Shown in pieces: positions 17,986 to 47,727 of a DNA stretch of 60,938 nt (within the stretch, counting starts at the first letter, position 1; each line of letters begins with the position of its first letter). Under the pieces are notes generated by a model. That model was given only the letters and a program-made list of their open reading frames with translations, did not search any database and was not told the origin of the DNA. The translations under genes and the position numbers were made by a program. Source of the DNA: Myxococcales bacterium (GTDB lineage Bacteria; Myxococcota_A; Polyangia; Fen-1088). The stretch is from NCBI GenBank assembly GCA_003153015.1, contig PMBS01000138.1, forward strand, positions 55,482 through 116,419. Direction: 5' to 3'.

Positions 17986-18783
17986 CTACATTGCGAAGGC
18001 GATGCCGGTCACGCTGAACTTCGCGACGCGGTTGAGCCAGGCCAACCAGCGGGCGTGGGGATAGTAGTAGCGGGCGATGTCCACGGCGGCGATGCCGAAT
18101 ATCATTGAACTGAGCAAGAGGCGCGGAGCACCGCCGTCACGATGGATGCCGCGGATATCGCCGTCGGTGGGTTCCACGCCGGCCCAATTCGCGAGCACGT
18201 AGCCAATGGACAACAGGGTATTGAAAGCCAGCATGCCCTTGCGAAAGGGCGCGTTGTCCATGCGCAGCCCAGGTCGCCGGGTAAGGATGACCTCGTCTTC
18301 GTACTGCTGGCACTGGATACCTGCCGACACGATGGTGTAAAGCCCGGGCCGGCCAGGCCAGAAAGGCTGGCCGTTGTGTTTGGTGCAGGCACCGTCCCGG
18401 CAATGGATTGAAGGAACGATGGCAAAGTAGGGGATGAAACCCAGGAAGGTCACGGACTCGAACCCGGGTCGGTTGCCCATGGCCAGGTTCGTGATGAGGT
18501 GGCAGGATTCGTGCGCGGCCAAGGCGGTGATTGCGCCGCCGGCGAAGATCGCGGCCGAGCGCCATGTGAACTGCCGGGGCGTGAGTTCGGGTGGCGCAGT
18601 GGCTACGTGCAGGTCAGGGGCAAGAGGTGCGGGCGGTGCACTCTCAGCCGCCGGCGGGCTCGCCTGGCGCGCTTCGGGCAGGGGCGTTTCCTCGGCAACT
18701 GTCGACCCGGCGGCCAGCGCAGGGGCCAGGAACACGAGTGCCGCTAGGCGCCTCCGAAACTCTGCCGGTAGGTTCCGTTTCAT
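17986..18783 (-). CDS. Hypothetical membrane protein with an HExxH motif at the start of a hydrophobic segment.
   Basis: MKRNLPAEFRRRLAALVFLAPALAAG (signal/anchor), Pro/Ala-rich spacer, AIFAGGAITALAAHESCHLITNLAMG (HESCH = HExxH), and further hydrophobic segments. Divergent from the giant gene. Confidence 0.6.
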   Translation of the reverse strand: MKRNLPAEFRRRLAALVFLAPALAAGSTVAEETPLPEARQASPPAAESAPPAPLAPDLHVATAPPELTPRQFTWRSAAIFAGGAITALAAHESCHLITNLAMGNRPGFESVTFLGFIPYFAIVPSIHCRDGACTKHNGQPFWPGRPGLYTIVSAGIQCQQYEDEVILTRRPGLRMDNAPFRKGMLAFNTLLSIGYVLANWAGVEPTDGDIRGIHRDGGAPRLLLSSMIFGIAAVDIARYYYPHARWLAWLNRVAKFSVTGIAFAM

Positions 18784-19078
18784 CGTTGCGGAGTTCTAGC
18801 TAGCCACGGCCTGGCGGGAAATCCGGGGGCGCACGCTGGCCGACCGGCGCCGGCGGTACTTGCAGAATTGGTGTGGCACCCGAAAAGGTTGAGGCTGGCC
18901 GGGCCGGAATGTCAACGATCCTTCGCGGCGGTTGGCTGGTCGGGACGTCAGCTCTACAGGTGATAGAAAACCAACACGAAACGTTGATTCCTTGGCAGGA
19001 GCGCCGGGAATTGCATGCAATTGGGCCAATTTCCGGCAAAGGCTGATCTGGTACCGGTCTTGCTGTGCGCGATGGTTG

Positions 19079-22000
19079 ATGAAATGCGGCCCACGGTCTC
19101 CCCTCCTCCTGCGCCTCTGGCTGGCGGTCGTGCCGGTTTCGCTATCTGCTCTGGCCTGGGCGGGTGGCCCGGGCCTGGGATCCGTGGGCCGACTGGTTGG
19201 TGCAGAACTCGGCACCGCATCCTATGCGGTCCGTGCTGCTGCCCGGGCCGCCGGCCGGATCTGTAGCGAAACCCAGGCCGCGCTCGTCTGTGAGAGCACC
19301 CCGCAAATTCCTGCCCAGACGACCTACTGGCTCAGCGACGGCCAGGTCTCGCGCGTCTACCTGGTCGCCCGGCCCGGCGGAACGCAGTTTGCTGATTTCG
19401 ACCGAGTTTTCCAGGATCTCCGCGCTCGCGTGCAAGCCGAACTTGGCCGCGAGCCCAGCGAGGATCGAAGCTTGCCGCCCTGGCTGGCTAGCCTGCCCGC
19501 AGAACAGCAGGACCGAGTATTTGTCGAACAGCGCCTAGTGGCCACCTGCCGCTGGCCGCTTCCTTTCGTGCTTGTCAGTCTCTCCCTACGCAGCGAGCAG
19601 GGAGCCCCCATTGTAGTGCTGGCAATCGAGCCGGATTTCGATTGCTCGCCCAAGACCCTGGCCGCAGCCCTGTTGGATCTGCATCCTCCGGCCGAACCCC
19701 GCACCCGCGCTTTGAGTGCGCGTCTGGTGGCGACCTGCGCGGGCACCCGGGCGGCGGGCGCGCTGGCTGCGTCGTTGGCTCAGGATCCGGAACCCGCGGT
19801 ACGCATCGAGGTGGCACGCGCACTTGGCAACGCGCCTTCGCCCGTCGCGCGCCAGGCTCTGGAAGATGCCGCCCGAAACCAGAATGAACCAGCGGTACAG
19901 CGGGAAGCCTTGCGGGCGCTGGTGCGGCAGGGCTCGTCCAAGTCGGTGAGTGCTCTCGCGGCCGATACCGGCCAGCCCGCAGCCTTGCGCCGCCTGGCCA
20001 AAGACGTGATGGCCGAAGCGGCCAAACGCGCGGCACCAGCAGCGCCGGCTGTGGCAGGCGGTCCAGCCCCGGCTTTACCAGCAACGGCAAGCCCCGGCGC
20101 GGCCGCCAGGTTCAGTCGAGAAGCTCCGCAGCCTGTTGCGACAGGCACCTTGGCTATGTCCCCACTGTCCGTACAACCCACGGACAAGGTGGCCCTCCCG
20201 CCCAATCAGCCGGCCCCGGTAGCGTCGCCATTGCCCGAGCCGCCCCCTGCCGACGGCACCGCTCTGGCCATCGTCACCTCAGCGGCGGCGGGTGGCTTCT
20301 GGGGTGGCAGCCTCTCTCTGCTCGCCCAGCAGAACAACACCGGCGTGGTGGCGCTGGTGGGCGGCGCAGGCGCGGTCATCGGCGGCGGCACCGCATGGGG
20401 TATCACCCGCTTCGGCTTGCGGCCCACAGCAAAGCAGGCCTTCTGGTATGCCAACGCGACAGCGTGGGGATCCCTTGCCGGGCTGATGGCATGGTCAGGC
20501 AGCGGATCAGACAACCCCAAGTTGAAGTACGGCCTGCTGGTAGGGGGCGAGACCGCGGGCATCGCCATGGGCATTGCCGGCGCGCGCCTGTGGTCGTGGA
20601 CGCCGGGTCAGATCGGGCTGGCCAACAGCTTGCTCGTAGGCGCTGCTCTGGCCGGCATGGGAGTCGACCGCTTGATTGAGCCGGAGTGGTCAACGCGGGT
20701 TCCGGCGGCGGTCGGCTACGGCGTGGCGCCGGCCATGTTGGCGGCGGCAGTGGTTGCGCGCCACCTGCCTGTCACCAGCAATGACGTGGTCATGATGAGC
20801 ATGGGCAGTCTTTGGGGTGGCTGGACAGGCAGCTTGATCGCCAGCGGGGCTGCCGGCCAGTCGTGGTTAGGTAGCCACCAGGGACAGGGCGGACTGATGC
20901 TGGGTCTGGGCGCCGGGTTTTTGGGTATGGCCGCCCTGAGCCCATTCGTAGAAGTGGAGCCGCGCTACTCGCTGGCCCTACCAGGCGCCATGGTGGTGGG
21001 CAACCTGTTCGGACTGGGCACGGCCATGCTGGCTGAGCCGAGTGGTCCGCACTGGGCTTTGGGAGCGGGCTTGGGGGGCGTGGGCTACACACTCGGCGCC
21101 CTTTCGCTGGCTTCCCACCTCCGGCCGGGACCTGCCTGGCTGGGAATGACCACAATGGGAACTGTGTATGGCGCGGGAACCTGGCTGCTGGCCAGCGCAG
21201 CCGCCGCGACCGGCAGCAAAGCGCGGATGGCTGGGGGCGCGATGGTGGGCGGCGTGGCAGCCGGAAGCTTGGGTCTGGTCGTCTCGCAGTACTTTCGTCC
21301 CGAACCCGAAGACCACGCGACCGCAGGGGCGGCAGCGGCGGCCGGCCTGAGCGTAGGCATGGGCCTGGCCAAGCTGACGACTGACGACAAGGGGACGCCC
21401 GAACTGGTTGGCGTGTTGTCGGGCGCAGCTACGGGTTTTGCCGGCGGCGCGCTCTTTGCCCACTATGGTCGCTTGCGGCCACCCAGCCTGCTGGCCGGGG
21501 CCATGGCGGGCGGTTACGGGCTGCTGGTGGGCAGCTTGGCGCCCACTTTGGATAACGATACGTGGTCCAATTCGCGGCGCACGGCGGGCGGATCGTGGTT
21601 GGGCCTTGGGCTGGGCGTGCTGGGGGGGACTGCGCTGGCCCAGTGGCAAGATGTCAGCTACCGCCAGAACCTATTCGCGCTTCTGGCTGGGACGTTGGGT
21701 GAGGGCATCGGCGCCGGGGCCGGTCTGATGCTCCCGGACGCGACCTCGCGCTCAACCCGCATTGGTGCAGTGGCGGGCCCGACAGTACTGACCGCGGGCG
21801 CCCTCTTGCTCGACCGCAGACTGCATCTCTCCGAGGGCGTGGGTCCGCAATGGACGTCGCTTTCAGCCATGGGCATCGGCGTGGGCATGCTCGACGGCGC
21901 GCTAGCTGCGCGGGTAATGGTTTCCGACGACAGTGCGGTGGCCAAGCGACAGACTGAGGGCGGGCTTCTTCTGGGAGCTAGTGTCGGCCTCGCCTCGGGT

Positions 22001-24820
22001 TTGGTTCTATCCAAGTACGTCGCGCCGACTGGCCAAGACTACCTCACAGTCGGGGCGGCGAGCCTGTTGGGACTGGCGCTGGGGCAGGGCGTGGGCCAGT
22101 TGGCAGTGGCGCCGGACAGGCAGAGCGACTGGCTGCCCCCTTTGCGGCTGGCGGGCGCGTTGACTGGGCTTGCTGGCAGCACGCTGGTCGCGCACAGCCT
22201 GCAGTTGGGTTGGATGGACATGGGCGCCGCTGCCTACGGGACGGGGTATGGCGCTCTACTGGGGCTTTTCGCTTCGTCGCTGGGCGAGCCGCTCTGGCAC
22301 AACGATCGCTTCAGCCAGGGTGGCGCCTTCGTGGGCATGGCCTTGGGCGGGGTAGCGGCGGCGGCAGCGGAGCACGTGACCGGCGCCAGAGCAGCCCAGG
22401 TCAATTTCGTCGCAGCAGCGACCGCCCTGGGTCTGGGCGCCGGCTATGGGCTGGGCCTGGCCTTGCCCTATGACTCCAGCCAACCCGAGCGCGTGGGCCT
22501 GGTGGCAGGCAGCGCCGGTTTTCTCGCTGGGGCGGTCGCGCTCGACTACAAGTTGCACCTTTCGAGCGGCGAGGGGTTGCACCTGCCCGTGCTGATGTCT
22601 TCTGCCGGCTTGCTGGTGGGCGGCGTCGAGGGCGCGCTTTTGGCCGGAGCCATGGATGGAAGCGGTCTGCTCGGTCACACGCCCGGCAGTCGGGTGGCTG
22701 GCGGTGTTCTCTTTGGCACTTCCTTGGGCGCCGGCTCGGGCTTCCTCTTGGCGCGCGTGTTGCGGCCGAGCGAGGGCGACATCCTGCTCAGCATGGGAGG
22801 CGGGGTACTCGGGGGAGCGCTGGGGCTAGGCACGTCAATGCTAATTGCACAGACCGCTGGCCGCAGCGACACCTTGTTTGCCCTGAGCGGGTCCCTGGGT
22901 CTGATGGCAGGCACTGCGCTGGCTACTCACTGGGACGGCCTTCATTTGGCCGCGCCGCCGCTTTTGACCGGGCTCGGCTACGGCGCGCTGGCCGGCGCGT
23001 TGGCGCCCAGTCTGGGTGACGAGACCTGGCCGGGCTGGACGCGCAAGAGCACGGGCGGTCTTCTGGTCGGCGGCGCAAGCGGGGCGCTGGCCGGGACGCT
23101 GCTGGGCCAAGTAACCCACGCCACGAATCGGCAGTCCGGCCTGGCTGCCCTGGGTGGGGCCGACGGTCTGGCGGCCGGTTTGGGCTTCGGGCTTCTGCTC
23201 GACGATCGCAACAGCCAGGGGGCTCGCATCGGCGTGGTGGCTGGCAGTGCTGCGGGCCTGGCGGTGGGGGCCACCCTGTGGCCGCGCATCACCTTGGACG
23301 ATTCTGATCCCTACCTGATCGGCGGCTTGGCTGCGCTGGGCCTGTGGAATGGTGCATGGCTGCCCGCGCTGAGCCACGCCAAGTTCTCGGAAGTCAGTGC
23401 CACCCAGCAATGGGGCGGGCTGCTAGCTGGCGGAGCCACAGCGTCGCTGGCGGCCACTGGGCTGGCGTCCTTCTTGAAGGTCGACAAGGACCTGATGGCC
23501 GATGGGCTCTTCATGGACTTTCTGTTGACCGGTGCTGCCGCCGGCGCAGGTGCTTTGGCCAGCGAGCGTGCTGATGTGCGCGTGGCTTCCATGTTGGGCG
23601 GCGGGTTGGCTGGCTTGGTGCTGGGCTCCGCTTTGCACAACAGCATCAACATGACCACCGAGGACGTGCCTTTGCTCACCTTGTCCTCGCTGGAAGGACT
23701 GTGGCTGGGCGCCTGGCTGCCGCGCGTCCTGTACAAGGGCGAAGATGTGAACCAGCGGAACCAAGTCGGCGGTCTGGTCGCGGGCGGGGTAGGGGGCTTC
23801 GCCATTGCCACTCTAGCCAGTCACTGGGTCGAGCCCGACGGCAATGAGGCTGTAGTGGCGGGCACGACCAGCGCCCTTGGCGCGGCGCTGGCCGGTGGCT
23901 CAGTCCTTCTGGCCGATGATCTCCACAACCGCGGCGGGGTTGCCATCATGTTGGGTGGAACTGCGGCTGGTCTTGGCGTCGGCATTGCACTCGCCCCGCG
24001 CTTGACCCTTGCGGCAGAGACGTCCGCATACCTTGCCGGCGGTGCGCTGCTGGGTGCGGGTGAGGGTCTGGTATTCGCGTGGGCAGGGCGAGCCTCGACC
24101 AACGTGGACTATGCGGGCGCAGCTTTGCTGGGAGGCGGGCTGGGCGCCAGTTTGGGGTTGGCAAGCGGCGTGGGACCCAGCCAAGGTGCCGGCCGCACTT
24201 TGGCCGCCGGGGGCTTCGCAGCCTGGGGCGCCTGGGTGGGCGCGTTCAGCGGCGCACTGGCCAACCGCGATCCGCACGAAGTGACGCTGGGCGGGCTGGC
24301 GGGTGCCAACCTGGGAGCCGCCGTGGGCTATAGCCTGCTGGCCAGGGACTGGGTCGAGCCGCGCGACTTTGGCTGGATCTCGCTCTTTGGCGCTGCGGGA
24401 GCTGTACTGGGCGGTGGCGTGGGCGCAATCTTGTCGTCGCAGGCCGACCCACGGCCGGTGCTGGCGGGGTTGACCATTGGCCCGGCAGTGGGCATCACTG
24501 CGGGCGCATTGGTGCTGCCGCGGTTGCATTCCTACCTTCGCGGCAGCAGTGATCCGGTCAGCTACTTCGATCTGGGCAGGCGCCAGGTGGCGGCCATGTC
24601 GGTGTCCCTGGCTGACGGCACGCCTGCGGCGGATGCCTCATCGGCCGATGTGCTAGCCGCGCGCAAAGCGCCCGGGCTTCTGCGCCGGATGGCCGGCCAC
24701 CTGGGCCAGGCGTTTCAGATCACGGAATGGGCGCCCATGGTGGGGGCACTGCCGCCCGTGCCGGGTGCGCCCAGTGGGTCCAATCCCTTCATCTTTGGTG
24801 TATCGGGCTTCTGGAAGTAG
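19079..24820 (+). CDS. Giant HEAT-repeat protein with a C-terminal tandem array of Gly/Ala-rich hydrophobic (glycine-zipper/TM-like) modules.
   Basis: Uninterrupted ORF 18932..24820. ATG 19079 gives MKCGPRSPLLLRLWLAVVPVSLSALAWAG. HEAT-like DPEPAVRIEVARALGNAPSPVARQALEDAARNQNEPAVQREALRALVRQG. From about nt 20270 there is a continuous run of GxxxG-rich hydrophobic segments with ~240-aa periodicity (see findings). Confidence 0.75.
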   Translation: MKCGPRSPLLLRLWLAVVPVSLSALAWAGGPGLGSVGRLVGAELGTASYAVRAAARAAGRICSETQAALVCESTPQIPAQTTYWLSDGQVSRVYLVARPGGTQFADFDRVFQDLRARVQAELGREPSEDRSLPPWLASLPAEQQDRVFVEQRLVATCRWPLPFVLVSLSLRSEQGAPIVVLAIEPDFDCSPKTLAAALLDLHPPAEPRTRALSARLVATCAGTRAAGALAASLAQDPEPAVRIEVARALGNAPSPVARQALEDAARNQNEPAVQREALRALVRQGSSKSVSALAADTGQPAALRRLAKDVMAEAAKRAAPAAPAVAGGPAPALPATASPGAAARFSREAPQPVATGTLAMSPLSVQPTDKVALPPNQPAPVASPLPEPPPADGTALAIVTSAAAGGFWGGSLSLLAQQNNTGVVALVGGAGAVIGGGTAWGITRFGLRPTAKQAFWYANATAWGSLAGLMAWSGSGSDNPKLKYGLLVGGETAGIAMGIAGARLWSWTPGQIGLANSLLVGAALAGMGVDRLIEPEWSTRVPAAVGYGVAPAMLAAAVVARHLPVTSNDVVMMSMGSLWGGWTGSLIASGAAGQSWLGSHQGQGGLMLGLGAGFLGMAALSPFVEVEPRYSLALPGAMVVGNLFGLGTAMLAEPSGPHWALGAGLGGVGYTLGALSLASHLRPGPAWLGMTTMGTVYGAGTWLLASAAAATGSKARMAGGAMVGGVAAGSLGLVVSQYFRPEPEDHATAGAAAAAGLSVGMGLAKLTTDDKGTPELVGVLSGAATGFAGGALFAHYGRLRPPSLLAGAMAGGYGLLVGSLAPTLDNDTWSNSRRTAGGSWLGLGLGVLGGTALAQWQDVSYRQNLFALLAGTLGEGIGAGAGLMLPDATSRSTRIGAVAGPTVLTAGALLLDRRLHLSEGVGPQWTSLSAMGIGVGMLDGALAARVMVSDDSAVAKRQTEGGLLLGASVGLASGLVLSKYVAPTGQDYLTVGAASLLGLALGQGVGQLAVAPDRQSDWLPPLRLAGALTGLAGSTLVAHSLQLGWMDMGAAAYGTGYGALLGLFASSLGEPLWHNDRFSQGGAFVGMALGGVAAAAAEHVTGARAAQVNFVAAATALGLGAGYGLGLALPYDSSQPERVGLVAGSAGFLAGAVALDYKLHLSSGEGLHLPVLMSSAGLLVGGVEGALLAGAMDGSGLLGHTPGSRVAGGVLFGTSLGAGSGFLLARVLRPSEGDILLSMGGGVLGGALGLGTSMLIAQTAGRSDTLFALSGSLGLMAGTALATHWDGLHLAAPPLLTGLGYGALAGALAPSLGDETWPGWTRKSTGGLLVGGASGALAGTLLGQVTHATNRQSGLAALGGADGLAAGLGFGLLLDDRNSQGARIGVVAGSAAGLAVGATLWPRITLDDSDPYLIGGLAALGLWNGAWLPALSHAKFSEVSATQQWGGLLAGGATASLAATGLASFLKVDKDLMADGLFMDFLLTGAAAGAGALASERADVRVASMLGGGLAGLVLGSALHNSINMTTEDVPLLTLSSLEGLWLGAWLPRVLYKGEDVNQRNQVGGLVAGGVGGFAIATLASHWVEPDGNEAVVAGTTSALGAALAGGSVLLADDLHNRGGVAIMLGGTAAGLGVGIALAPRLTLAAETSAYLAGGALLGAGEGLVFAWAGRASTNVDYAGAALLGGGLGASLGLASGVGPSQGAGRTLAAGGFAAWGAWVGAFSGALANRDPHEVTLGGLAGANLGAAVGYSLLARDWVEPRDFGWISLFGAAGAVLGGGVGAILSSQADPRPVLAGLTIGPAVGITAGALVLPRLHSYLRGSSDPVSYFDLGRRQVAAMSVSLADGTPAADASSADVLAARKAPGLLRRMAGHLGQAFQITEWAPMVGALPPVPGAPSGSNPFIFGVSGFWK

Positions 24821-24826
24821 CCAGAG

Positions 24827-25906
24827 CTACTGGCGCAGCCAATTCACGACGAAGACACCGTGCCCGCCCCTGATGCCGCCTCCCAAGACAGCGCCGCCCG
24901 CGTCGGTGCTCAGCACGCTGTCAGGCCACGGGCCGTTGAGCGGGGCATTGGAGCCCAGAATGCAACTCGCGTCGCTGCACGCATCGAGCTTCCAGGCCAC
25001 GCCGCTGATGTTGTTCTGCGCCATCCATGCGAACCAAAGATTGGCCTCGTCTTCACAGACGTAGTCGTGGTCTTTGCCGGCCAGACCTCCGTCGGAATAG
25101 GTCGCGCCAAACTCGGTCACGAAGATGGGAAGCCCAGCGGCGATGGCAAGGTCGCCCTTGTCGCGGTACGGCTGGGTATGGGTACACGAGTAGAAGTGCA
25201 GGGTGTAGAGCAGGTTCGTCCCGACCACGGGATCGAGAGCCGCCTGATCGACATTCTGCGACCAGTTCGGCGTGCCTAGCACGATCAGGTTGTCCGGATC
25301 CACGGCCCGGATCGCCGCGACCACGGCCTCGTGGTAGGGCTTGATCTGCGCCCAGGTGTACGGGTTCGGCTCGTTGTAGGGCTCCCAGATGACGTTGGGA
25401 TAGGCGCCGTACTTGGTAGCCATGGTGGAGAAGAATGCGACCGCCTCGGCCTGTTGAACCACGGCCTCCTCGGTGTGCCAGTCGACCAGCACGTACACGC
25501 CGAGATCGATCGCGTGCTGGACGATTTCTTCGACCTTGGTCTGCATGCCAGTGGGATTGGCGAGGTAGCCGCCCACCCCTCTGTCGGTCCCCATTGCGGC
25601 GCGGATCACTGACAGCTTCCAGTTGTCGCGCATGAACGTGAGTCCCTGCTGACTCTCGGCAAAGGGCGTGGTTTCCCAGTTGAGCCACATGCTACTCACG
25701 CCCTTGAGCTGGATAGGCGCCCCGGCGTGGTCCAGCAGCTGGCCTCCGACGACCTGGAGTTGCCCGTGGATGGCTACCGGCGAGCCCTGCGGAGCTGCGG
25801 TGGGGTCGGGAGGGACTTTCCAAAGGTCATTCTTAGGATCGCTGGCGCAACCCAGGGTCAAGAAGAGCGCGGTGAATGCTGCTATCGATAGCCTGTACGT
25901 ACGCAC
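24827..25906 (-). CDS. Glycoside hydrolase family 5 endoglucanase (cellulase) lipoprotein.
   Basis: GTG 25906 gives MRTYRLSIAAFTALFLTLGCAS (lipobox). The ORF extends to TTG 25948. GH5 motifs VLVDWHT, NVIWEPYNEPN (acid/base Glu), LHFYSCTH, LPIFVTEFGA (nucleophile Glu). Confidence 0.88.
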   Translation of the reverse strand: MRTYRLSIAAFTALFLTLGCASDPKNDLWKVPPDPTAAPQGSPVAIHGQLQVVGGQLLDHAGAPIQLKGVSSMWLNWETTPFAESQQGLTFMRDNWKLSVIRAAMGTDRGVGGYLANPTGMQTKVEEIVQHAIDLGVYVLVDWHTEEAVVQQAEAVAFFSTMATKYGAYPNVIWEPYNEPNPYTWAQIKPYHEAVVAAIRAVDPDNLIVLGTPNWSQNVDQAALDPVVGTNLLYTLHFYSCTHTQPYRDKGDLAIAAGLPIFVTEFGATYSDGGLAGKDHDYVCEDEANLWFAWMAQNNISGVAWKLDACSDASCILGSNAPLNGPWPDSVLSTDAGGAVLGGGIRGGHGVFVVNWLRQ

Positions 25907-26067
25907 GTGTGCATCCGTTCTAGGGGAGAGTCGCGAGCTGGTGGGCAAGGGCCAGGTCTTTCGTTTTTCTTCGACCTTGCTTTTCCTGATCGCATCGCAT
26001 GATGAGGGCCTTGCTTCTAGCGGACTTGGGGGACCGGGGCACGAACGATTTTCTGCGGTGTAGACTC

Positions 26068-26463
26068 ATGGGCATGTCGAGGCCCACTGCCGTGCACCAC
26101 ATCGCCATCAAGGTCAGGGATCTGGCGCGCGCCGAGCGCTTCTTTGTGCAGACATTGGGTCTTGCGGTCCTGCGGCGCTGGCCGGCGCAGGATGGTTCGG
26201 GCGAGCGCTCGCTCTGGCTCGACCTGGGAGCGGGCGCTTTCCTGGCTCTGGAGAGGTCGCCGAGCGAGAGCGAGGCGCTCGCGGCGGACGGGCCAGGTCT
26301 GCATCTGTTCGCGCTGCGCATCGAGCGCGCCGAGCGCCAGGCCTGGATCGATCGCCTCGCCAGCGCTGGGGTGCCGCCCTATGAACAGACGGCCTTCACC
26401 ATCTACTGCAAGGATCCCGAGGGCAACCGCATCGGACTGTCGCACTGGCCCGACCCAGTGTAG
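26068..26463 (+). CDS. VOC/glyoxalase-family protein.
   Basis: MGMSRPTAVHHIAIKVRDLARAERFFVQTLGL...LHLFALRIE...FTIYCKDPEGNRIGLS, the typical paired beta-alpha-beta-beta-beta VOC signature. Confidence 0.75.
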   Translation: MGMSRPTAVHHIAIKVRDLARAERFFVQTLGLAVLRRWPAQDGSGERSLWLDLGAGAFLALERSPSESEALAADGPGLHLFALRIERAERQAWIDRLASAGVPPYEQTAFTIYCKDPEGNRIGLSHWPDPV

Positions 26464-26487
26464 CGAAAAAGGGAGTAGACTCGGCCC

Positions 26488-26739
26488 ATGCGAGCCGTGT
26501 TTGTCATGCTGAAGACCGACCCGGGCCACGTGACCGAGGTGGCCAACTGCATCGCCGAGATCGAGAGTTTCTCGGAGGCCTATAGCATCAGTGGGCAGTA
26601 CGACCTGCTGGTCAAGCTGTACGTGGACGACGTGGACGGAGTGGGTCGGCTGATCGAGCAGCAGATTCACCCCATCCCGCACATCCGCGAAACCTATACG
26701 CTGCTGACCTTCGAGGCATTTGGGGTCTCCGGCGGGTAG
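26488..26739 (+). CDS. Stand-alone Lrp/AsnC ligand-binding (RAM) domain protein.
   Basis: MRAVFVMLKTDPGHVTEVANCIAEIESFSEAYSISGQYDLLVKLYVDDVDGVGRLIEQQIHPIPHIRETYTLLTF matches the AsnC-type effector-domain pattern. No HTH region. Confidence 0.75.
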   Translation: MRAVFVMLKTDPGHVTEVANCIAEIESFSEAYSISGQYDLLVKLYVDDVDGVGRLIEQQIHPIPHIRETYTLLTFEAFGVSGG

Positions 26740-26829
26740 GATTGGGTGCTCGCCCGTGGGGCTGCTACGCTGAGGCGATAAGGGACTACGGTGGTCGGGT
26801 TTTGCGCGGCCTCGACTGGGGAGGACACC

Positions 26830-27141
26830 ATGGCGTTCAGACAGATAACTCTTTTCGCAACCTTGCTGGCCCTCGGCGCTTGCGCGCCCCAGCTCGATGC
26901 GGACCATCCCGGCTACGGCAAGCAGCCTGACTGTTGGGCCTCGGGCTGTCACGATCGCAGCCACACTATGCGGTCGAGTGACTGGCCGTATCAGTGCGCC
27001 GATTGCCACGGCAACAACGGCGCGCCGGCCGGCCATGTCCCCGACTCGGCCGACCCCTGCGCGCCCTGCCACGGTGTGAAACACGGCGGCCCCGCCGCCG
27101 GGTTCATCGACCCGACCGCGTGCAACGCCTGTCACCGCTGA
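26830..27141 (+). CDS. Small multiheme c-type cytochrome lipoprotein (3 x CXXCH + 1 x CX4CH; tetraheme c3-like).
   Basis: GGGGAGG SD upstream of ATG 26830. MAFRQITLFATLLALGACAP lipobox. Heme motifs CWASGCH, CADCH, CAPCH, CNACH. Exactly 8 His in the mature 84 aa. Confidence 0.75.
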   Translation: MAFRQITLFATLLALGACAPQLDADHPGYGKQPDCWASGCHDRSHTMRSSDWPYQCADCHGNNGAPAGHVPDSADPCAPCHGVKHGGPAAGFIDPTACNACHR

Positions 27142-27174: not shown

Positions 27175-27879
27175 TCAAACGTCGTGCCTGAAGGTGATGG
27201 CCTGGCGGGCGAGTTGGTCGCAGCGCTCGTTGTTGTCCACGCCGGCGTGGCCAGCCACCTTGACCAGCTTGACGCGGGAAAAGGTCGCCATTTGTTCGCG
27301 CAGGCTAGCCACCAGATCTTGGTTGGCCTTGGCCTTCCAGCCCTTGCCCAGTAGGCCCAGGGCGTAGCTGGAATCGCTGTAGATGCGAACAGGCCGAGCC
27401 CGATCAGGGGCAAGCTGGGCTGCCAAGTCGAGCCCACGCGAAATGGCGGTCAGCTCGGCGATGTTGTTGGTGCCCACGCCCAGGTATTCGCCGCGTTCGG
27501 CGCGCTCGCGGTCGGCCACCACCACGATGCCGACGCCCATGGGGCCGGGGTTGCCGGAGCAAGCCCCGTCGGTCCACACGTGGATCGTACCGGGAGCGTG
27601 ATCGTCGGTGTTCGACGCTGCCCGCGCCCGGGGATGTGAAGAAGATGCGGACGCGGCCCGAGGCGCGCGTGGGGGCCGGGGCTCGGCACGCGGCGCAGGC
27701 TGGCTCGCCTCCTCGGCCAGCGGCGCCAGGTTGCCGGGAGACGGCCGGTAGCTCTTGCCATCCTCCTGGCGGTACTTCATTTCGGCTCGGCCTTGGCTGT
27801 CCAGAAACGGCCGAAGGTCGGCCCCCACCCGCACCCAGACCGGCTGGCCCTTGAAGCTCATGCGTGACCAAGACATCAT
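27175..27879 (-). CDS. rnhA: Ribonuclease HI with a ~95-aa N-terminal extension.
   Basis: IHVWTDGACSGNPGPMGVGIVV, TNNIAELTAI, IYSDSSYALGLL, VKVAGHAGVDNNERCDQLARQA (DEDD catalytic pattern). The N-terminal part is Pro/Arg/Ala-rich. Confidence 0.85.
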   Translation of the reverse strand: MMSWSRMSFKGQPVWVRVGADLRPFLDSQGRAEMKYRQEDGKSYRPSPGNLAPLAEEASQPAPRAEPRPPRAPRAASASSSHPRARAASNTDDHAPGTIHVWTDGACSGNPGPMGVGIVVVADRERAERGEYLGVGTNNIAELTAISRGLDLAAQLAPDRARPVRIYSDSSYALGLLGKGWKAKANQDLVASLREQMATFSRVKLVKVAGHAGVDNNERCDQLARQAITFRHDV

Positions 27880-27998: not shown

Positions 27999-29513
27999 GT
28001 GACTGAAGCTGACAAGACCACCGACCGTGCCGTCGAGGTGGGCCACGGCGTGCTGTTCATCGGATTCGCCAAGGCCTCATTCATGGTGTTCGGGGCTTTG
28101 CAGAAGTTTCTGCTCGCGCGCGTGGTTGACCTGGCCGAGTACGGCGCCTTCTCGGTAGTGAACAACGCCATCTCCATCGTGAACAACACCATCGTACAGG
28201 GGACCATCCAGTCGGTGTCCAAGTTCACCGCCGAGGACGATGCGCGTGCCGGCGCGGTCCAGCGCGCGGGTCTGAAGTTGCAGAGCATCCTGGGCGTGGC
28301 GGTGGCGGTGGCGTTTTTCCTAGCGGCGCCTCTGGTCGCCGGGTTCGTGAATGCCCCGGAGCACACCGCGCTCTTCCGTTTGGCCGCGGCCATCCCTCTG
28401 GTCTACGCCTTTTATACCGTGTTCGTGGGCACGGCCAACGGCCAGCGCCGGTTTCACGTGCAGGCGAGTTTCGACGTTGGCTTCTCCATCACCAAGACTG
28501 TGCTTTTGCTGGCGGGCGCAGCGCTGGGGCACATGACCGGTCATTCGGTGGCTGGGGCGTTTGCCGGGTTCATCGCCGCGGCCGTGGTCATCATGCTGGT
28601 GGCAGGGCACAAGATGTGGCTTCACCCAGGGCAAGGCCGCTTCTCGCCCGCGCGCCTGCTGGTGTTCATGGGAGGCGCGGTGACCTACACCGGGCTGATC
28701 AATCTGGCGCTGAGCTACGACTCGCTCCTGCTGCGGCGGTTTGCCGGGGCTGCGCTGCTGGGGCAGGGGGGCAAGGCCGACGCGCTGGTGGGCGTGTACG
28801 AGGCGGTTCGCAGCCTGGCGCTGCTGCCCTACCAGGCTCTTCTGGTGGTGACCTTCGTCATCTTTCCCTTGGTCTCGCGCTCCACCTTTGCCGAGGACCG
28901 CGAGGCGACCCGGGCCTATGTGCGGCAGACCCTCCGCTACGCCCTCATCTTTGGCGCGGCCATGGCAGTGGTGCTGGGCGCGCGCCCTGCAACCTTGCTG
29001 AGGATCTTCTATCCTGCAGGCTACGGCACTGGCGCTGCGGCCCTGCCGATCTTGGCGGCCGGCGTGGTCGCGCTTGCATTGCTCTCCATAGCGGGCTCGA
29101 TCGTGACGGCGTCCGGTCGGCCCTATGTCGCGGTGGCGCTGGTGGCAATCACCCTGGCGGCGGGCACTGGCTTGGCCTTCACCCTGGTTCCGCGCGCTGC
29201 TGCCGGCCCGGCCATGCTGTCTGCGGCCGCCGCGTCGACCGCGGCTGGCATGCTGGCCGGCTTTCTGGCGGCGCTGGGCTATCTGTGGCGTCGCTTTGGC
29301 GCCGGGCTGCCCCTGCTGTCAGTGTTGCGTGTGCTGGTCGCGACGGCGCTGGCGGTGGGCGTGGCTCGCCTGGTGCCCGGGTCAGGGATCGTGGCGGGCG
29401 CGGCGGCCATGGCGCTGGCCGGGCTGGTGTTCGGCGCGGCGTTGCTGGCGGCACGCGAATTCGGCGCCAAAGATCGTGAGAAGTTCTTCAAGATCCTGCA
29501 TCGCACGCGGTAG
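27999..29513 (+). CDS. Polysaccharide/oligosaccharide flippase (MOP superfamily, Wzx/MurJ-like).
   Basis: GTG start. About 12-14 hydrophobic segments. N-terminus GHGVLFIGFAKASFMVFGALQKFLLARV and overall organisation are typical of polysaccharide biosynthesis (PST) family proteins. Confidence 0.7.
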   Translation: MTEADKTTDRAVEVGHGVLFIGFAKASFMVFGALQKFLLARVVDLAEYGAFSVVNNAISIVNNTIVQGTIQSVSKFTAEDDARAGAVQRAGLKLQSILGVAVAVAFFLAAPLVAGFVNAPEHTALFRLAAAIPLVYAFYTVFVGTANGQRRFHVQASFDVGFSITKTVLLLAGAALGHMTGHSVAGAFAGFIAAAVVIMLVAGHKMWLHPGQGRFSPARLLVFMGGAVTYTGLINLALSYDSLLLRRFAGAALLGQGGKADALVGVYEAVRSLALLPYQALLVVTFVIFPLVSRSTFAEDREATRAYVRQTLRYALIFGAAMAVVLGARPATLLRIFYPAGYGTGAAALPILAAGVVALALLSIAGSIVTASGRPYVAVALVAITLAAGTGLAFTLVPRAAAGPAMLSAAAASTAAGMLAGFLAALGYLWRRFGAGLPLLSVLRVLVATALAVGVARLVPGSGIVAGAAAMALAGLVFGAALLAAREFGAKDREKFFKILHRTR

Positions 29514-29975: not shown

Positions 29976-32357
29976 GTGATCGTCGCACGCCCCGCCATCT
30001 GGATCAATCACCGTTTCGGCCTGCGCCCCTTGCTTTGGGGCGGCGTGCTGGCGCTGGCTGCGCTGGCGCTCGACTTCGTGCCGCTCTTCGACCTGCTAGG
30101 GTTCGACTTTTCCTTCATCGTCGGTCTGGCCGCTGCCTTTGCCGCGGCCGACGTGGGCCACGGCGCCGTGACCGCGGCCCGGCGCGCCCACCGCAGGGTA
30201 TCGCTGTGGGAGCTGGTGTGCTCTGCAGTAACGGCTGGCCTGGCGCTGCTGGCGGCGCCCCTGCTGCTATCGCTGGCCAATGCCCTGCGCGTGCGCAACT
30301 GCAATCTGCCGGTGGGGTTGGCGTTCTATGCCCTACTTCCCGTGGCCAGCGTGTTGGTTGCAGCACCAGCGGGCGTTCTGCTGGGCTTGCTGGTGCGCGG
30401 GCCGCGCCTTGGGCGGTTGCTTGCGCTCATGCTGCCGGCCGCATCGATCGTGTGGGCCATGCTTCGCCTCTACCTGGACCCGCCAGTGTTTGCCCTGGAC
30501 CCGTTTGGCGGGTACTTCCCCGGCCCGATCTACGACGAGGGCCTGCGCCCATCGGTGCGCCTGGTGTGGTTCCGTCTGGCCAATCTGACCTGGATCGCCA
30601 CGGCTCTGGTGCTGGCCGGCTGCGCAAGCCGCGGCGGACAGCCGGACGAGGCGGGGCCACCGGCGCTTGCCTGGCGCTCTTTTCCGTCGCGGATGTCGCT
30701 GGCCCGGTGGCTGGGAGCCGCCCTCGCCCTGCTGGCGGGCTCGGCGCTTTGGTTCGGGTTTCGCGCCGAGCTTGGCTTTCACCTGACCAGGGACGACTTG
30801 GTTCGCGTGTTGTCGCGGCGGACGCAGAGCGAACATTTCGTGATGTGGAGCGATCCGGTAGGGGACACGCCGGTTGAGATAGGACTCGTGCACAGCGATC
30901 TGGAGTTCCGCTACCAGCAGTTGCGCGCCATCCTGGGCAGCGAGCCGCGCACGCCGATTACCGTCTATCGTTTCTCGACCGCGGCAGTGAAGAAGGATCT
31001 GGTAGGCGCCGGCGCCACGCTGTACGCGAAGCCTTGGAAACGGGAGATCTACGTGCAGGCCGAGCGCTTTCCCGCACCTCGGCTGCGCCATGAGCTGGCC
31101 CATGTCTTTGCCGCTGAGTTTGGCGATCCGGTGTTCGGTGTGGCGTTGGCCTGGCGCAGGTGGGGACCACTGCCGGTCCCACACCTGGGCACCGGCCTCA
31201 TCGAGGGCGTGGCTGAGGCCGCGGACTTTGGCGATCCCGACGGGCGTGCGACCTTGCATCAGCAGGCGCGAGCCATGCTTGCTCTCGGCCAGGCACCCTC
31301 GCTGGCGCGGGTCATGGGGGCAGGGTTCAGCGTGCAGTCCGGCGCGCGCGCCTATGTCATGGCGGGATCGTTCTGTCGTTTCCTCTTCGATCGCTTTGGG
31401 GCGGACAAGCTGCGCGCGGCCTACCGGTCGGCTGGCGATTTCGTGGCGGCATATGGTCTCTCACTGGCTGAGCTGGAGAAGTCATGGCGGGCCTTCTTGC
31501 AAACCCAGCCCTTGGACGCGCGGGATGAGGCGCGTGCCAAGGAGAGTTTTCGCAAGCCCGCCATCTTTCACAAAGTATGTGCGCGTGAGCTGGCCGAACG
31601 CGTGGTGCAAGCGCGGGAGCGAATGCGCACCATGCCTGACGCGGCAGTGAGCCTGCTGGAGAGCGTATGCCGGGATGATCCGGACGAGCCTTCATACCGG
31701 CTGGATCGGGCCGAGGCACTGGCCGCGGCCGGCGCCTCGGACAAGGCTTTGGCCCTGGTGCAGCCGATGGTTGATGACGAGTCACTGACCTGGCCTTTGC
31801 GCGGCCGGGCCGCCAACCTGATCGGCGCGATCGAGTTTCATGCCGGCCACTTCACCCAGGCAGCAGCCGCAGCAGAGCGCAGCCTGGCTCTGGCCACCGA
31901 TGAGAATGAGATGCGCACGGCCTGGGCCAAGCAGCGCGCCCTGGCCGACGATGGCTCCCGCCGATCCTTGGGCCGCGTGCTGTTTGGCGATGGCCCGGCG
32001 CGCGCCACCGACCCGGGCTTGGTGGTTTTCCTGGCCGACGAGTTTGCCCGTCTTCACCCGGAAGAGGCGTTAGGGCCCTATCTCGTGGGACGCCAACTCG
32101 CCAGCCGGGATCCCCACCTGGCGCTCGCTCCCTTGGCGCAGGCCTGTCCGCTCGATGGGCCAGGAATGGCTGTGCCGCTGGAACCGGCCTTTGCCAAGGA
32201 ATGCCGGAGGCTCTACGGCGAGTCCGCGTTTCTGGCCGGCGATCTGCCGCTTGCTCGTCGAATCTACGAAGTCCTTCGAGATCAGGCAACGCTGGAATCT
32301 GATCGGCTTCGCGCCAACGACTTTCTGGAACGCATCGCTTGGCAAGCAAGGCGATAG
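29976..32357 (+). CDS. Polytopic membrane protein fused to an MA-clan (HExxH) metallopeptidase-like domain and a C-terminal TPR-like helical region.
   Basis: N-terminal ~250 aa have about 7 hydrophobic segments. PAPRLRHELAHVFAAEFGDP (HELAH) ...GLIEGVAEAADFG. The C-terminal helical repeats are Ala/Leu/Arg-rich. The GTG 29976 start is uncertain. Confidence 0.65.
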   Translation: MIVARPAIWINHRFGLRPLLWGGVLALAALALDFVPLFDLLGFDFSFIVGLAAAFAAADVGHGAVTAARRAHRRVSLWELVCSAVTAGLALLAAPLLLSLANALRVRNCNLPVGLAFYALLPVASVLVAAPAGVLLGLLVRGPRLGRLLALMLPAASIVWAMLRLYLDPPVFALDPFGGYFPGPIYDEGLRPSVRLVWFRLANLTWIATALVLAGCASRGGQPDEAGPPALAWRSFPSRMSLARWLGAALALLAGSALWFGFRAELGFHLTRDDLVRVLSRRTQSEHFVMWSDPVGDTPVEIGLVHSDLEFRYQQLRAILGSEPRTPITVYRFSTAAVKKDLVGAGATLYAKPWKREIYVQAERFPAPRLRHELAHVFAAEFGDPVFGVALAWRRWGPLPVPHLGTGLIEGVAEAADFGDPDGRATLHQQARAMLALGQAPSLARVMGAGFSVQSGARAYVMAGSFCRFLFDRFGADKLRAAYRSAGDFVAAYGLSLAELEKSWRAFLQTQPLDARDEARAKESFRKPAIFHKVCARELAERVVQARERMRTMPDAAVSLLESVCRDDPDEPSYRLDRAEALAAAGASDKALALVQPMVDDESLTWPLRGRAANLIGAIEFHAGHFTQAAAAAERSLALATDENEMRTAWAKQRALADDGSRRSLGRVLFGDGPARATDPGLVVFLADEFARLHPEEALGPYLVGRQLASRDPHLALAPLAQACPLDGPGMAVPLEPAFAKECRRLYGESAFLAGDLPLARRIYEVLRDQATLESDRLRANDFLERIAWQARR

Positions 32358-47640: not shown

Positions 47641-47727
47641 CAGCCGCACATCATCGCCTGAACGCCAGCAAAGATGTGTCTCAAAACTCGCCGCAACTTG
47701 GGACGGGTCCGTCCGATAAGGCAGGCG

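Follow-up and report, generated by a model that had tools for sequence, protein, structure and literature searches.

What kind of protein is encoded by an uninterrupted forward-strand open reading frame (18932..24820, +) in a 60,938-nucleotide stretch of a Myxococcales genome (referred to here as the window), and is that protein made at all? A sequence-only reading of the window had proposed a single real giant gene with a signal-peptide-like start, encoding a HEAT domain and a long glycine-zipper array, and this observation is confirmed by the present analysis. Translation from the ATG at 19079 gives a protein of 1,913 aa with the N-terminus MKCGPRSPLLLRLWLAVVPVSLSALAWAG, and the nearest homolog (P0001) begins at the same Met.

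19079..24820, + strand: complete coding sequence, 1,913 codons and a stop at 24818-24820 (ORF list, translation).

The window has a GC content of 62-69%, prone to long accidental open reading frames, and contains many overlapping alternative-frame ORFs, as would be the case for a spurious, GC-driven frame whose protein is never made. Against this stand a dN/dS of 0.19 over 1,907 codons (window gene versus the 86% identical ortholog in L006), the maintenance of frame, length and architecture in homologs down to 33% identity, confident AlphaFold2 models and the presence of a Pfam HEAT_2 match. Homologs, which for a spurious frame were expected to be absent or frameshifted, were found and are mostly intact. 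The spurious-ORF explanation, whose probability we regard as negligible, is ruled out by the homologs and the dN/dS, and the gene is under purifying selection and selectively maintained in uncultured Myxococcota. A scan 5' of its start found no promoter or terminator.

The homolog search suggested earlier across Myxococcota returned about 35 full-length homologs (33-86% identity), all from metagenome-assembled genomes of uncultured Myxococcota/Polyangia, in which the number of array modules varies from 3 to 7. In species-representative genomes there are 35 loci; where the longest ORF stops short of a contig end (26 loci), it is at least 1,560 aa in 19 cases. The module HMM (E <= 1e-3) detects the module in 679 representative proteins, and at least 113 strong representatives are found among 1.8 billion clusters, the family being confined to uncultured Myxococcota lineages. 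A sister family (~2,240 aa) and a mini family (650-830 aa) keep the same HEAT-plus-array design, suggesting that the two parts are coupled. For the mini family, a homolog search gave 2 proteins and a metagenome scan 4 loci with unrelated neighbours. The family as a whole comes in mini, giant and HEAT-rich forms.

The N-terminal part had been described as soluble, with HEAT/PBS-lyase-like repeats and a Pro/Ala linker, and this description holds. It consists of four segments:

19079..19162, + strand: predicted Sec signal peptide, aa 1-28, with an A-W-A|G cleavage-type site (read from sequence).
19166..19648, + strand: predicted alpha/beta N-terminal domain, aa 30-190, with conserved Cys62 and Cys71 (AlphaFold2, conserved positions).
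19649..20032, + strand: HEAT-like helical repeat domain of PBS-lyase/alphaRep type, aa 191-318 (Pfam, AlphaFold2, Foldseek).
20042..20254, + strand: disordered Pro/Ala-rich linker, aa 322-392 (18 Pro and 17 Ala per 71 residues).

The putative signal peptide, modelled by AlphaFold2 as a helix at 9-28 with low pLDDT, ends in ...SLSALAWA|GGPG, and homologs have comparable N-termini with AxA-type sites. No Cys is present at the cleavage site, and there being no lipobox, the giant protein is therefore not a lipoprotein. The alpha/beta domain, modelled with pLDDT 85-90 as a mixture of strands and helices, contains Cys, Thr and Trp positions conserved among homologs, and is missing in some of them (e.g. 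P0005, P0031 and P0033). It had no match in the PDB (search by N-domain profile) or in a Pfam scan, and the same profile, when used to look for homologs, recovered a single fragment. The adjoining HEAT-like domain, flanked by the conserved Cys189 and Cys220, contains a Pfam HEAT_2 (PF13646) match at aa 229-306 (E 1.5e-14, 54.5 bits versus a cut-off of 27.7), which includes the HEAT-like peptide first picked out by eye (aa 236, nt 19784). Its helices are modelled with pLDDT 91-96, and Foldseek aligns it with alphaRep, CpcE/F and deoxyhypusine hydroxylase at probability 1.00 (for alphaRep and CpcE/F, target-length-normalised TM 0.5-0.86 and 21-25% identity over ~125-130 aa). By the Pfam cut-off and by superposition of the predicted model on solved HEAT-like proteins, aa 191-318 qualify as a HEAT repeat domain. 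The linker has pLDDT < 50 at aa 322-380, and the HEAT-to-array spacing differs among homologs. Because of the signal peptide and the confinement of four conserved Cys (62, 71, 189 and 220) to the first 220 residues, with no Cys in the following 1,693, the head is probably exported.

The array, claimed to start at about nt 20270, was found to start at aa 394 (nt 20258), and extends over 1,427 aa to aa 1820. AlphaFold2 predicts 48 helices of ~24 aa each, separated by short loops, which fall into six modules of ~236 aa with eight helices each, bearing out the proposed C-terminal array (~1,430 aa) of diverged ~240-aa units. The modules and the tail that follows them are:

20258..20854, + strand: module 0, aa 394-592, seven predicted helices, diverged, lacking module helix 1 (module HMM, AlphaFold2).
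20876..21550, + strand: module 1, aa 600-824, eight predicted glycine-zipper helices (module HMM E 4.7e-61; AlphaFold2).
21575..22282, + strand: module 2, aa 833-1068, eight predicted helices (module HMM E 2.6e-72; AlphaFold2 pLDDT 80-90).
22307..23014, + strand: module 3, aa 1077-1312, eight predicted helices (module HMM E 1.5e-63; AlphaFold2).
23042..23728, + strand: module 4, aa 1322-1550, eight predicted helices, diverged (module HMM E 6.7e-25; AlphaFold2).
23753..24538, + strand: module 5, aa 1559-1820, nine predicted helices (partial module HMM matches, E 3.6e-10 and 7.8e-4).
24539..24817, + strand: C-terminal tail, aa 1821-1913, a disordered stretch, a short helix and a predicted beta-hairpin (AlphaFold2).

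Module 0 matches the module HMM with E 3.6e-7 over HMM positions 31-234. Module 5 is the best-conserved part across the family, with Gly, Trp, Asp and Pro invariant at many positions, and carries the sole near-threshold Pfam glycine-zipper match. The tail ends in ...NPFIFGVSGFWK; its predicted strands (aa 1881-1890 and 1904-1912) have pLDDT < 50, making the hairpin one of low confidence. A tail motif, W-x-P...P-x-F-x-G-x-S/T-G-x-x-K/R, is conserved across the giant family, and similar ends also occur in the sister and mini families. The mean pLDDT is 80.8 for aa 1-830 and 77.3 for aa 825-1913, and a pTM of 0.44-0.48 leaves the overall arrangement of the helices uncertain. Mean-field direct-coupling analysis of 506 modules gave top couplings that are gap or module-type artefacts in loops, and therefore no trustworthy helix-contact map.

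The ~240-aa periodicity is significant by HMMs, shuffled Smith-Waterman and autocorrelation. An HMM built from the repeats of a homolog alone (P0008) matches the window protein at aa 600-824, 831-1068, 1077-1312 and 1314-1459, Smith-Waterman z scores versus shuffles are 21.5 for modules 2 and 3, 17.5 for 1 and 2 and 14.5 for 2 and 4, and BLOSUM autocorrelation peaks lie at about 30, 60, 90, 118-120 and 238-244 aa. Self-BLAST of the giant protein gave the identity match only, so that the repeats are shown by the other three methods instead. At the level of sequence, the periodicity exceeds what composition gives. The two halves of the module are homologous to each other (hhalign probability 98.5%, E 3.6e-15), and each module is an ancient duplication of a four-helix unit (2 x 4). 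Two recurring anchor peptides noticed earlier by eye are present at spacings of 696-735 nt: anchor B lies at nt 21758, 22490, 23225 and 23933, within 1 nt of the positions given for it, and anchor A recurs as described, at nt 20861, 21557, 22289, 23021 and 23732, its positions having been placed 14-56 nt too low.

The helices had been taken for several dozen glycine-zipper helices, and the 48 in the model are accompanied by 40 GxxxGxxxG motifs, compared with 9.8 +/- 3.4 in shuffles (z = 9), and by 99 GxxxG motifs, compared with 52. All eight helices of the module conserve a G-x3-G-x3-G pattern. In every one of them conservation peaks on the Gly face, which lies roughly opposite a less conserved bulky hydrophobic face, and invariant alignment columns are overwhelmingly Gly. 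Module helix 2 has a GxGxGxG-type run, and module helix 4 a partly conserved mid-helix acidic residue.

As had been supposed, no characterised family covers the array: Pfam, NCBIfam, PHROG, PDB-sequence and Foldseek searches gave no match over this region. Searching PDB sequences with the full-length protein, or with profiles of the module and of the N-terminal domain, gave nothing significant, nor did NCBIfam or a Pfam scan of each module in turn; Foldseek of aa 825-1913 against the PDB gave a best E of 0.75 (TM <= 0.28). No PHROG family was matched at E <= 0.1, and Foldseek of the array against BFVD gave a best E of 0.034 at TM 0.10, tape-measure matches having E > 1; a phage tail tape-measure protein with glycine-zipper segments was rejected on these results. 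The faint Pfam and PDB similarities of the array are only to glycine-rich two-helix hairpins, namely Glycine zipper 2TM, CyanoTRADDas_TM, Romo1 and Mgr2. For Glycine zipper 2TM (PF05433), the score is 17.3 bits with the whole protein and 20.6 with module 5 alone, versus a cut-off of 24.2, and the sub-threshold match spans one hairpin (aa 1714-1751). Literature on glycine zippers with HEAT and Myxococcota, and on giant tandem hairpin proteins, yielded nothing on the giant HEAT-array family, which is an undescribed one.

Beyond this architecture, we infer. The earlier suggestions of a scaffold, a pore or an envelope structure remain guesses. Only 15 of 757 helix-core residues are charged (2%), with charges, Pro and Trp located in loops, and these cores, together with the similarities being only to glycine-rich membrane hairpins, suggest that the array is buried in a membrane. 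The helix-loop-helix repeats of ~30 aa are near the HEAT period, and Foldseek gives weak alignments, none of them significant, to vinculin, talin and importin, as would fit a soluble alpha-solenoid, in which Gly/Ala/Leu-rich helices prolong the HEAT solenoid of a high-GC host into a soluble periplasmic scaffold. This is very improbable, and was rejected on the uncharged helix cores and the confinement of Pfam HEAT models to aa 229-306; moreover, Foldseek pairs the HEAT part with alphaRep structures and finds nothing for the array, and the conserved face is Gly-x3-Gly-x3-Gly rather than the HEAT consensus.

The array helices are far less hydrophobic than those of Sec/YidC-type inner-membrane proteins of the same genome, as compared within the window. 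The median summed Hessa-scale free energy is +4.35 kcal/mol for the array, versus +1.55 for 40 segments of MFS, Wzx-like, YfhO and GT87 proteins encoded in the window; all 48 array helices have positive values, and none of the 48 is at or below 1 kcal/mol, compared with 18 of the 40 (Mann-Whitney p = 3e-9). The Gly content is 24.5% in array segments and 9.6% in the comparison transmembrane segments. Alternate loop sets of the window protein contain 27 and 26 K+R, showing no positive-inside bias, and the 506 modules show a mild excess, with 4.75 K+R per module opposite the head versus 3.10 on the head side, the direction expected with the head outside. Such weak hydrophobicity and lack of bias speak against the ordinary Sec/YidC route into the cytoplasmic membrane. 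Of the earlier view of putative membrane helices, the hydrophobic helices thus stand, if marginally so; with so marginal a hydrophobicity and almost no positive-inside bias, that they span a membrane is only an inference.

The reading that we favour, at about even confidence, is a membrane-embedded glycine-zipper scaffold with a periplasmic HEAT adaptor. The array would lie in a lipid membrane, most likely the cytoplasmic membrane, with Gly faces packing helix on helix and bulky faces toward lipid, forming a very large intramembrane platform of 24 covalently joined helical hairpins. The number of helices being even, the HEAT head and the C-terminal tail would therefore be on the same, periplasmic side. 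The role would most likely be structural: the array would serve as an immobile scaffold or fence within the membrane, and the flexibly tethered HEAT domain would capture a periplasmic or envelope partner, perhaps the conserved C-terminal tail of its own chain or of another.

The same hydrophobicity data bear on a different location, which we consider doubtful but worth weighing: an exported array in the outer membrane, or wrapped around a lipid or protein patch, which would make it a one-chain equivalent of the SlyB/YfgH glycine-zipper rings, oligomers that corral lipid nanodomains. The whole protein would pass through Sec, its helices being too weakly hydrophobic to stop transfer, and the 24 hairpins would then insert. 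This agrees with the cleavable-type signal peptide and conserved head Cys, with 48 of 48 helices having positive insertion energy and being significantly less hydrophobic than those of inner-membrane proteins of this genome, with the unbiased loops of the window protein, and with the best sub-threshold Pfam match being to a family of outer-membrane lipoproteins; SlyB itself forms an 11-mer ring (22 helices) around lipid (bioRxiv 10.64898/2025.12.22.696046). It is opposed by the lack of a lipobox, by there being no known route that carries ~1,400 apolar residues over the periplasm, by the mild K+R bias of the family, which fits inner-membrane insertion with the head outside, by a Pfam match that is sub-cut-off and involves 1 of 24 hairpins, and by helices of ~24 residues, the full bilayer-spanning length. 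A more speculative and rather unlikely idea, drawn by analogy, has the chain closing on itself, its 24 glycine-zipper hairpins standing as a ring or palisade with an inner and an outer circle of 24 helices each. Such a single-chain ring of the SlyB/proteolipid type would surround either a lipid nanodomain of its own or an unprecedentedly wide pore, and would be latched by the HEAT head on the conserved C-terminal beta-hairpin, which the even number of helices would put on the head side; the mini family would build the same ring from several chains.

The genomic context bears on whether the favoured scaffold has dedicated partners. Two long contigs, 35 genome loci and all-against-all clustering of the flank ORFs revealed no conserved neighbour gene; at most 6 of 38 loci have any one flanking family in common, and the neighbours in the window (HExxH protein, hypE, GH5 and a 372-aa ORF) had no tblastn match in any locus. 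Synteny with the HExxH gene, raised earlier as a possibility, is present in 0 of 45 related loci, and that gene is therefore not a partner. Because flanking families are not shared and the window neighbours do not recur, the giant protein would be expected to work alone and not within an operon-encoded machine. The sister family is located downstream of a PfaA-like PKS, a PPTase and an SDR in 2 of 4 loci; a functional link with the PKS cluster was rejected, and the association read as lineage synteny, since it is absent from the other two.

Glycine zippers are a typical feature of pore-forming toxins, to which papers on T7SS effectors also point, and a secreted membrane-damaging toxin of a predatory myxobacterium, carried for example on vesicles, is conceivable, its hairpins forming large pores in prey membranes like those of shorter glycine-zipper toxins. 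The signal peptide, the module copy number differing among homologs, and the marginal hydrophobicity and lack of topology bias, as post-translational insertion would give, are consistent with it. The explanation is nevertheless improbable: there is no conserved adjoining immunity-like small gene or secretion-system gene, the dN/dS of 0.19 and invariant Gly indicate ordinary purifying selection and not an arms race, the gene is usually single-copy per genome locus in housekeeping surroundings, and no toxin domain was found in Pfam or NCBIfam.

If the array is membrane-spanning, the protein would be a natural covalently concatenated glycine-zipper assembly and would probably rank among the most helix-rich of known membrane proteins. 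Being weakly hydrophobic and free of topology bias, a 1,400-residue apolar array behind an exported domain also poses a question of biogenesis, namely how it is delivered and inserted. The mini, giant and HEAT-rich forms provide natural variants for structural work.

Among known systems, PBS-lyase HEAT-like and alphaRep proteins (HEAT_2, HEAT_PBS, CpcE/F) resemble aa 191-318, which pass the Pfam threshold and superpose on their structures, but this similarity covers ~130 of 1,913 residues, and the domain here is Cys-flanked, apparently exported and fused to a putative membrane array. Romo1/Mgr2 and Tim17-type proteins share the glycine-rich two-helix membrane hairpin, Mgr2 being the top PDB profile match; they are single mitochondrial hairpins, and the Mgr2 and faint Pfam Romo1 matches (E 0.07 and 1.5) are non-significant.

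PIEZO contains 38 transmembrane helices, all but two of which belong to nine repeats of a four-helix unit (PMC12377734), and its blades, like the array, build a giant membrane protein from serial four-helix units, with the 48 helices here exceeding 38 if all span the membrane. No PIEZO fold was present among the best 50 Foldseek matches (aa 825-1913 versus the PDB), and, unlike PIEZO, the giant protein is bacterial, has a signal peptide and HEAT head, very short loops and glycine-zipper packing, and lacks a pore module or cap.

The A/V-type ATPase proteolipids provide a precedent for a single chain of tandem glycine-rich hairpins replacing an oligomeric ring: subunit K of Methanopyrus kandleri has 1,021 aa and 26 transmembrane segments in 13 hairpins (PMC2359735), a number that 48 membrane-spanning helices would likewise exceed. 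The GxGxGxG-type run of module helix 2 and the acidic residue of module helix 4 are also proteolipid-like. By contrast with proteolipid rotors, the array lacks a carboxylate in every hairpin, the acidic residue occurring only on module helix 4 and being partly conserved; the protein has a putatively exported HEAT head, and no ATPase genes are near the giant gene, its neighbours being hyp genes and a GH5 enzyme, and other loci lack ATPase genes as well. Homology to the c-ring was rejected on an hhalign probability of 0.4% between the module profile and subunit c (E. coli sequence, approximate); Pfam gave no ATP-synt_C match at E <= 10.

The best Pfam similarity of the array, sub-cut-off and limited to one hairpin, is to the PF05433 lipoproteins (SlyB, YfgH, OsmB and the Rickettsia 17-kDa antigen), which likewise have a membrane helical hairpin with GxxxG repeats and are, as the giant protein apparently is, exported, and like it weakly hydrophobic. 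Where these have a lipobox, a lipid anchor and a beta-rich domain, the giant protein has neither lipobox nor lipid anchor and carries a HEAT domain as its head, and it joins 24 hairpins covalently, with predicted helices of ~24 aa arranged in a family-specific eight-helix module that has no counterpart in the lipoproteins.

The giant gene lies in a single unbroken ORF (18932..24820, +), found in both the ORF list of the window and its translation, and its start at ATG 19079 gives a 1,913-aa product with the N-terminus MKCGPRSPLLLRLWLAVVPVSLSALAWAG, just as the sequence-only reading had it. The same start methionine is present in P0001, a homolog with 86% identity. Comparison of the gene with its ortholog in the related locus L006 gives dN/dS = 0.19 over 1,907 aligned codons, and two remoter orthologs give 0.16 and 0.26. 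The earlier reading had allowed that the frame might be a spurious product of high GC content; this is rejected by the purifying selection (dN/dS 0.16-0.26), by the full-length relatives and by the mostly intact ORFs across loci. The finding is real, its first description is correct, and the protein represents an undescribed family built from known blocks, namely an adaptor of HEAT type and membrane hairpins with glycine zippers.

The protein was modelled by AlphaFold2 in two pieces, residues 1-830 (mean pLDDT 80.8, pTM 0.48) and residues 825-1913 (mean pLDDT 77.3, pTM 0.44). The first piece is predicted to contain:

aa 9-28, signal-peptide helix
aa 30-190, alpha/beta domain (pLDDT 85-90)
aa 191-318, helical repeat domain (pLDDT 91-96)
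aa 322-380, disordered segment
aa 394 onwards, regular helices

Foldseek aligns this N-terminal model, over aa ~191-318, with HEAT-like proteins only, among them alphaRep and CpcE/F, in agreement with a Pfam HEAT_2 match (E 1.5e-14); the HEAT peptide quoted in the sequence-only reading was located at nt 19784. The second model comprises 33 array helices of 20-29 residues each, connected by short loops, of which the last ends at aa 1820. Beyond the array, the predicted tail contains a disordered stretch and two short helices in all, and the extreme C-terminus forms a short helix followed by a low-confidence beta-hairpin. With both models joined, the whole array consists of 48 predicted helices averaging 23.8 residues, and the six modules hold 7+8+8+8+8+9 of them.

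The array is periodic. BLOSUM autocorrelation over aa 400-1830 gives peaks at ~30, 60, 90, 118-120 and 238-244 residues, consistent with the ~240-aa repeat first noticed by eye from two recurring peptides. Anchor A does recur, at nt 20861, 21557, 22289, 23021 and 23732, positions for which the coordinates first reported were 14-56 nt too low, while those of anchor B (nt 21758, 22490, 23225 and 23933) were right to within 1 nt; the measured anchor spacing is 696-735 nt, as against the 710-740 nt first estimated. A module HMM trained on another protein alone, using the four 245-aa repeats of P0008, which are almost identical to one another, matches the window protein four times, and one iteration (110 modules) extends the matches to:

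aa 379-589, diverged copy (E 3.6e-7)
aa 600-824, module (E 4.7e-61)
aa 833-1068, module (E 2.6e-72)
aa 1077-1312, module (E 1.5e-63)
aa 1322-1550, module (E 6.7e-25)
aa 1549-1656, half module (E 3.6e-10)
aa 1634-1821, weak match (E 7.8e-4)

Compared with each other, the window modules reach z-scores of up to 21.5 (Smith-Waterman, shuffle-controlled), and homologs carry 3-7 module copies. The two module halves are mutually homologous (hhalign probability 98.5%, E 3.6e-15, 102 columns), with weaker mutual similarity among the quarter units, or hairpins. The periodicity and the half-module homology thus define a hierarchy of hairpin (~59 aa), four-helix unit (~118 aa), eight-helix module (~236 aa) and array.

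From aa 401 to its end, the protein contains 18.7% Gly, 17.0% Ala, 15.3% Leu and 1.1% Lys. The pattern GxxxGxxxG occurs 40 times in the window protein, compared with 9.8 +/- 3.4 in shuffles, and Gly-Gly spacing peaks sharply at 4. In 180 proteins contributing 506 modules, three conserved glycines at four-residue spacing mark every one of the eight module helices, and invariant alignment columns are nearly all Gly, with a few loop Trp, Pro, Asp and Arg. The glycine face is the direction of greatest conservation, with bulky hydrophobic residues facing roughly opposite; a conserved small-residue face packing on protein and a variable face toward lipid is the typical pattern of membrane helices. 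A water-soluble solenoid is very unlikely, since only 15 of the 757 helix-core residues are charged. Module helix 4 has a partly conserved mid-helix acidic residue at consensus position ~107 (GAAEGLLLAG in the consensus), which is Asp at aa 939 and Glu at aa 1184 of the window protein, Glu in all four P0008 repeats, and Thr or Asn in outer modules. In apolar helices, buried carboxylates frequently serve as binding sites for ions or protons.

Across homologs the N-termini resemble signal peptides with AxA-type sites. All six cysteines of the window protein lie within the first 220 residues (none in the other 1,693), and four of them, Cys62, 71, 189 and 220, vary little or not at all. From these sequence features we infer that the N-terminal head is exported, and 48 predicted helices would bring the tail out on that same side. 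Hydrophobicity on the Hessa scale (best 19-residue window of each helix) was compared with that of 40 segments in four polytopic membrane proteins encoded in the window, an MFS protein and the products of three envelope glycan genes that served solely as same-genome controls:

27999-29513, plus strand, Wzx-like polysaccharide flippase
43869-46118, minus strand, YfhO-family membrane protein
46135-48537, minus strand, GT87 membrane glycosyltransferase

The array helices have a median summed free energy of +4.35 kcal/mol, with none below +1.2, versus a control median of +1.55 with 18 of 40 segments at or below 1 (Mann-Whitney p = 3e-9); control proteins from related MAGs resemble the window controls. 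Lys+Arg counts in the alternate loop sets are 27 versus 26 in the window protein, and 4.75 versus 3.10 per module over the 506 modules, a mild bias whose direction fits an inner-membrane protein with its head outside; the head side is richer in Trp and Tyr. Weighing the signs of head export, the weak hydrophobicity and the loop charges, we keep placement of the array in the cytoplasmic membrane, with both termini periplasmic, as most likely, and give real weight to the alternative that the whole array is exported to the outer membrane or a lipid particle.

About 35 full-length relatives (1,650-2,409 aa, 33-86% identity) were found in a large protein collection, all from metagenomes or MAGs and, wherever named, called 'hypothetical protein'. 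With each species represented by a single genome, a scan brought up 35 loci; every one comes from an uncultured Myxococcota, Polyangia or 'Deltaproteobacteria' MAG, and cultured species contribute no locus. The longest ORF is at least 1,560 aa in 19 of the 26 loci where it stops short of the contig end. Shorter ORFs, perhaps the result of frameshifts (assembly indels or real pseudogenes), occur in a few loci, mostly from 'MFD' MAGs, presumably long-read assemblies; in L009, L022, L023, L033, L034 and L035 the longest homolog ORF is just 667-1,314 aa and the contig continues beyond it.

Among 1.84 billion representative proteins, the module profile matches 679 at E <= 1e-3, of which 113 reach E <= 1e-30; the giants in this set are 1,700-2,544 aa long. 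The alpha/beta domain is optional among homologs. In a mini family of shorter proteins (650-830 aa), a signal peptide, often a Cys-Pro-rich stretch, and a HEAT_2 domain come before roughly two modules, and the C-terminal end is again beta-like; members P0146, P0165, P0168, P0135 and P0156 (loci L041 and L043) have ~16 glycine-zipper helices, and two of these carry a CPxCPxC-type stretch. As an oligomer, the mini protein could be the counterpart of the single-chain giant. In a sister family (~2,240 aa), a HEAT solenoid of ~650 aa precedes the same modules. The design shared by both families makes a HEAT head coupled to a glycine-zipper array the conserved theme.

No conserved neighbour gene was found on two long contigs, in the 35 genome loci or by a tblastn search of related loci for the window's HExxH protein, hypE, GH5 enzyme and 372-aa ORF. 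The surroundings of the giant gene in the window include:

9159-11315, minus strand, putative ORF of 718 aa
15302-17894, plus strand, hydrogenase maturation cluster hypC (HupF/HypC), hypD and hypE (AIRS/AIRS_C), directly upstream of the giant gene
17986-18783, minus strand, 265-aa HExxH membrane protein with a signal-peptide-like start, HESCH at aa 91 and hydrophobic segments
24827-25948, minus strand, GH5 cellulase-family glycosidase, converging on the giant gene's stop codon with a 6-nt gap
26017-27135, minus strand, 372-aa ORF without a family, which reads like a non-coding frame
27175-27879, minus strand, RNase H-domain protein
29976-32357, plus strand, putative ORF of 793 aa
40117-42480, plus strand, putative ORF of 787 aa

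The 718-, 793- and 787-aa ORFs match no Pfam family at E <= 1e-5, and the hyp cluster is adjacent to no homolog of the giant gene. The HExxH protein, whose synteny the sequence-only reading had proposed to check, belongs to no Pfam family and has a counterpart in none of the 45 related loci, and is therefore not a partner. In sister loci L038 (1-6853) and L039 (1-7899), with 51% identity between their giant proteins, the giant directly follows, on the same strand, a ~2,800-aa PfaA-like polyketide/PUFA-type synthase, a PPTase and an SDR, an arrangement absent from sister loci L040 and L046; this adjacency might point to a link with specialised lipids. Faint Cu-binding MopE-like Pfam matches occur in genes immediately upstream of the giant in two unrelated loci, L002 (8642-9709, main family, opposite strand) and L040 (4188-9167, sister family, same strand).

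That no characterised family covers the C-terminal array, as the sequence-only reading supposed, is borne out by Foldseek, with no fold match in the PDB (best E 0.75, TM <= 0.28, among the matches listed) or in BFVD. A phage tape-measure protein is not supported: PHROGs give no family at E <= 0.1, the best BFVD match stands at E 0.034 and TM 0.10, and the tape-measure matches listed there have E > 1. Nor does an NCBIfam search support membership of a toxin family. We see roughly even chances that the protein is a large scaffold within the membrane carrying a periplasmic adaptor, taking structure and localisation jointly, with a scaffold function as our best guess; closure of the single chain into a ring or corral seems improbable. 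Nothing described so far combines 24 hairpins, covalently joined in a hierarchical repeat, with an exported HEAT head tethered in front of them. PIEZO is a giant membrane protein made from serial four-helix units (PMC12377734), but the array shows no fold match to it among the Foldseek matches listed. The 26-segment subunit K of Methanopyrus is an oligomeric hairpin ring fused into a single chain (PMC2359735); unlike proteolipid rotor subunits, to which it has no sequence relationship, the array lacks a carboxylate per hairpin and an ATPase gene context. One hairpin scores 20.6 bits against the Pfam Glycine zipper 2TM domain, below the cut-off of 24.2. SlyB, which assembles into rings around lipid (bioRxiv 10.64898/2025.12.22.696046), and YfgH are lipoproteins, whereas the window protein has no lipobox; their exported, weakly hydrophobic GxxxG hairpins in the membrane are the nearest working principle to the array.
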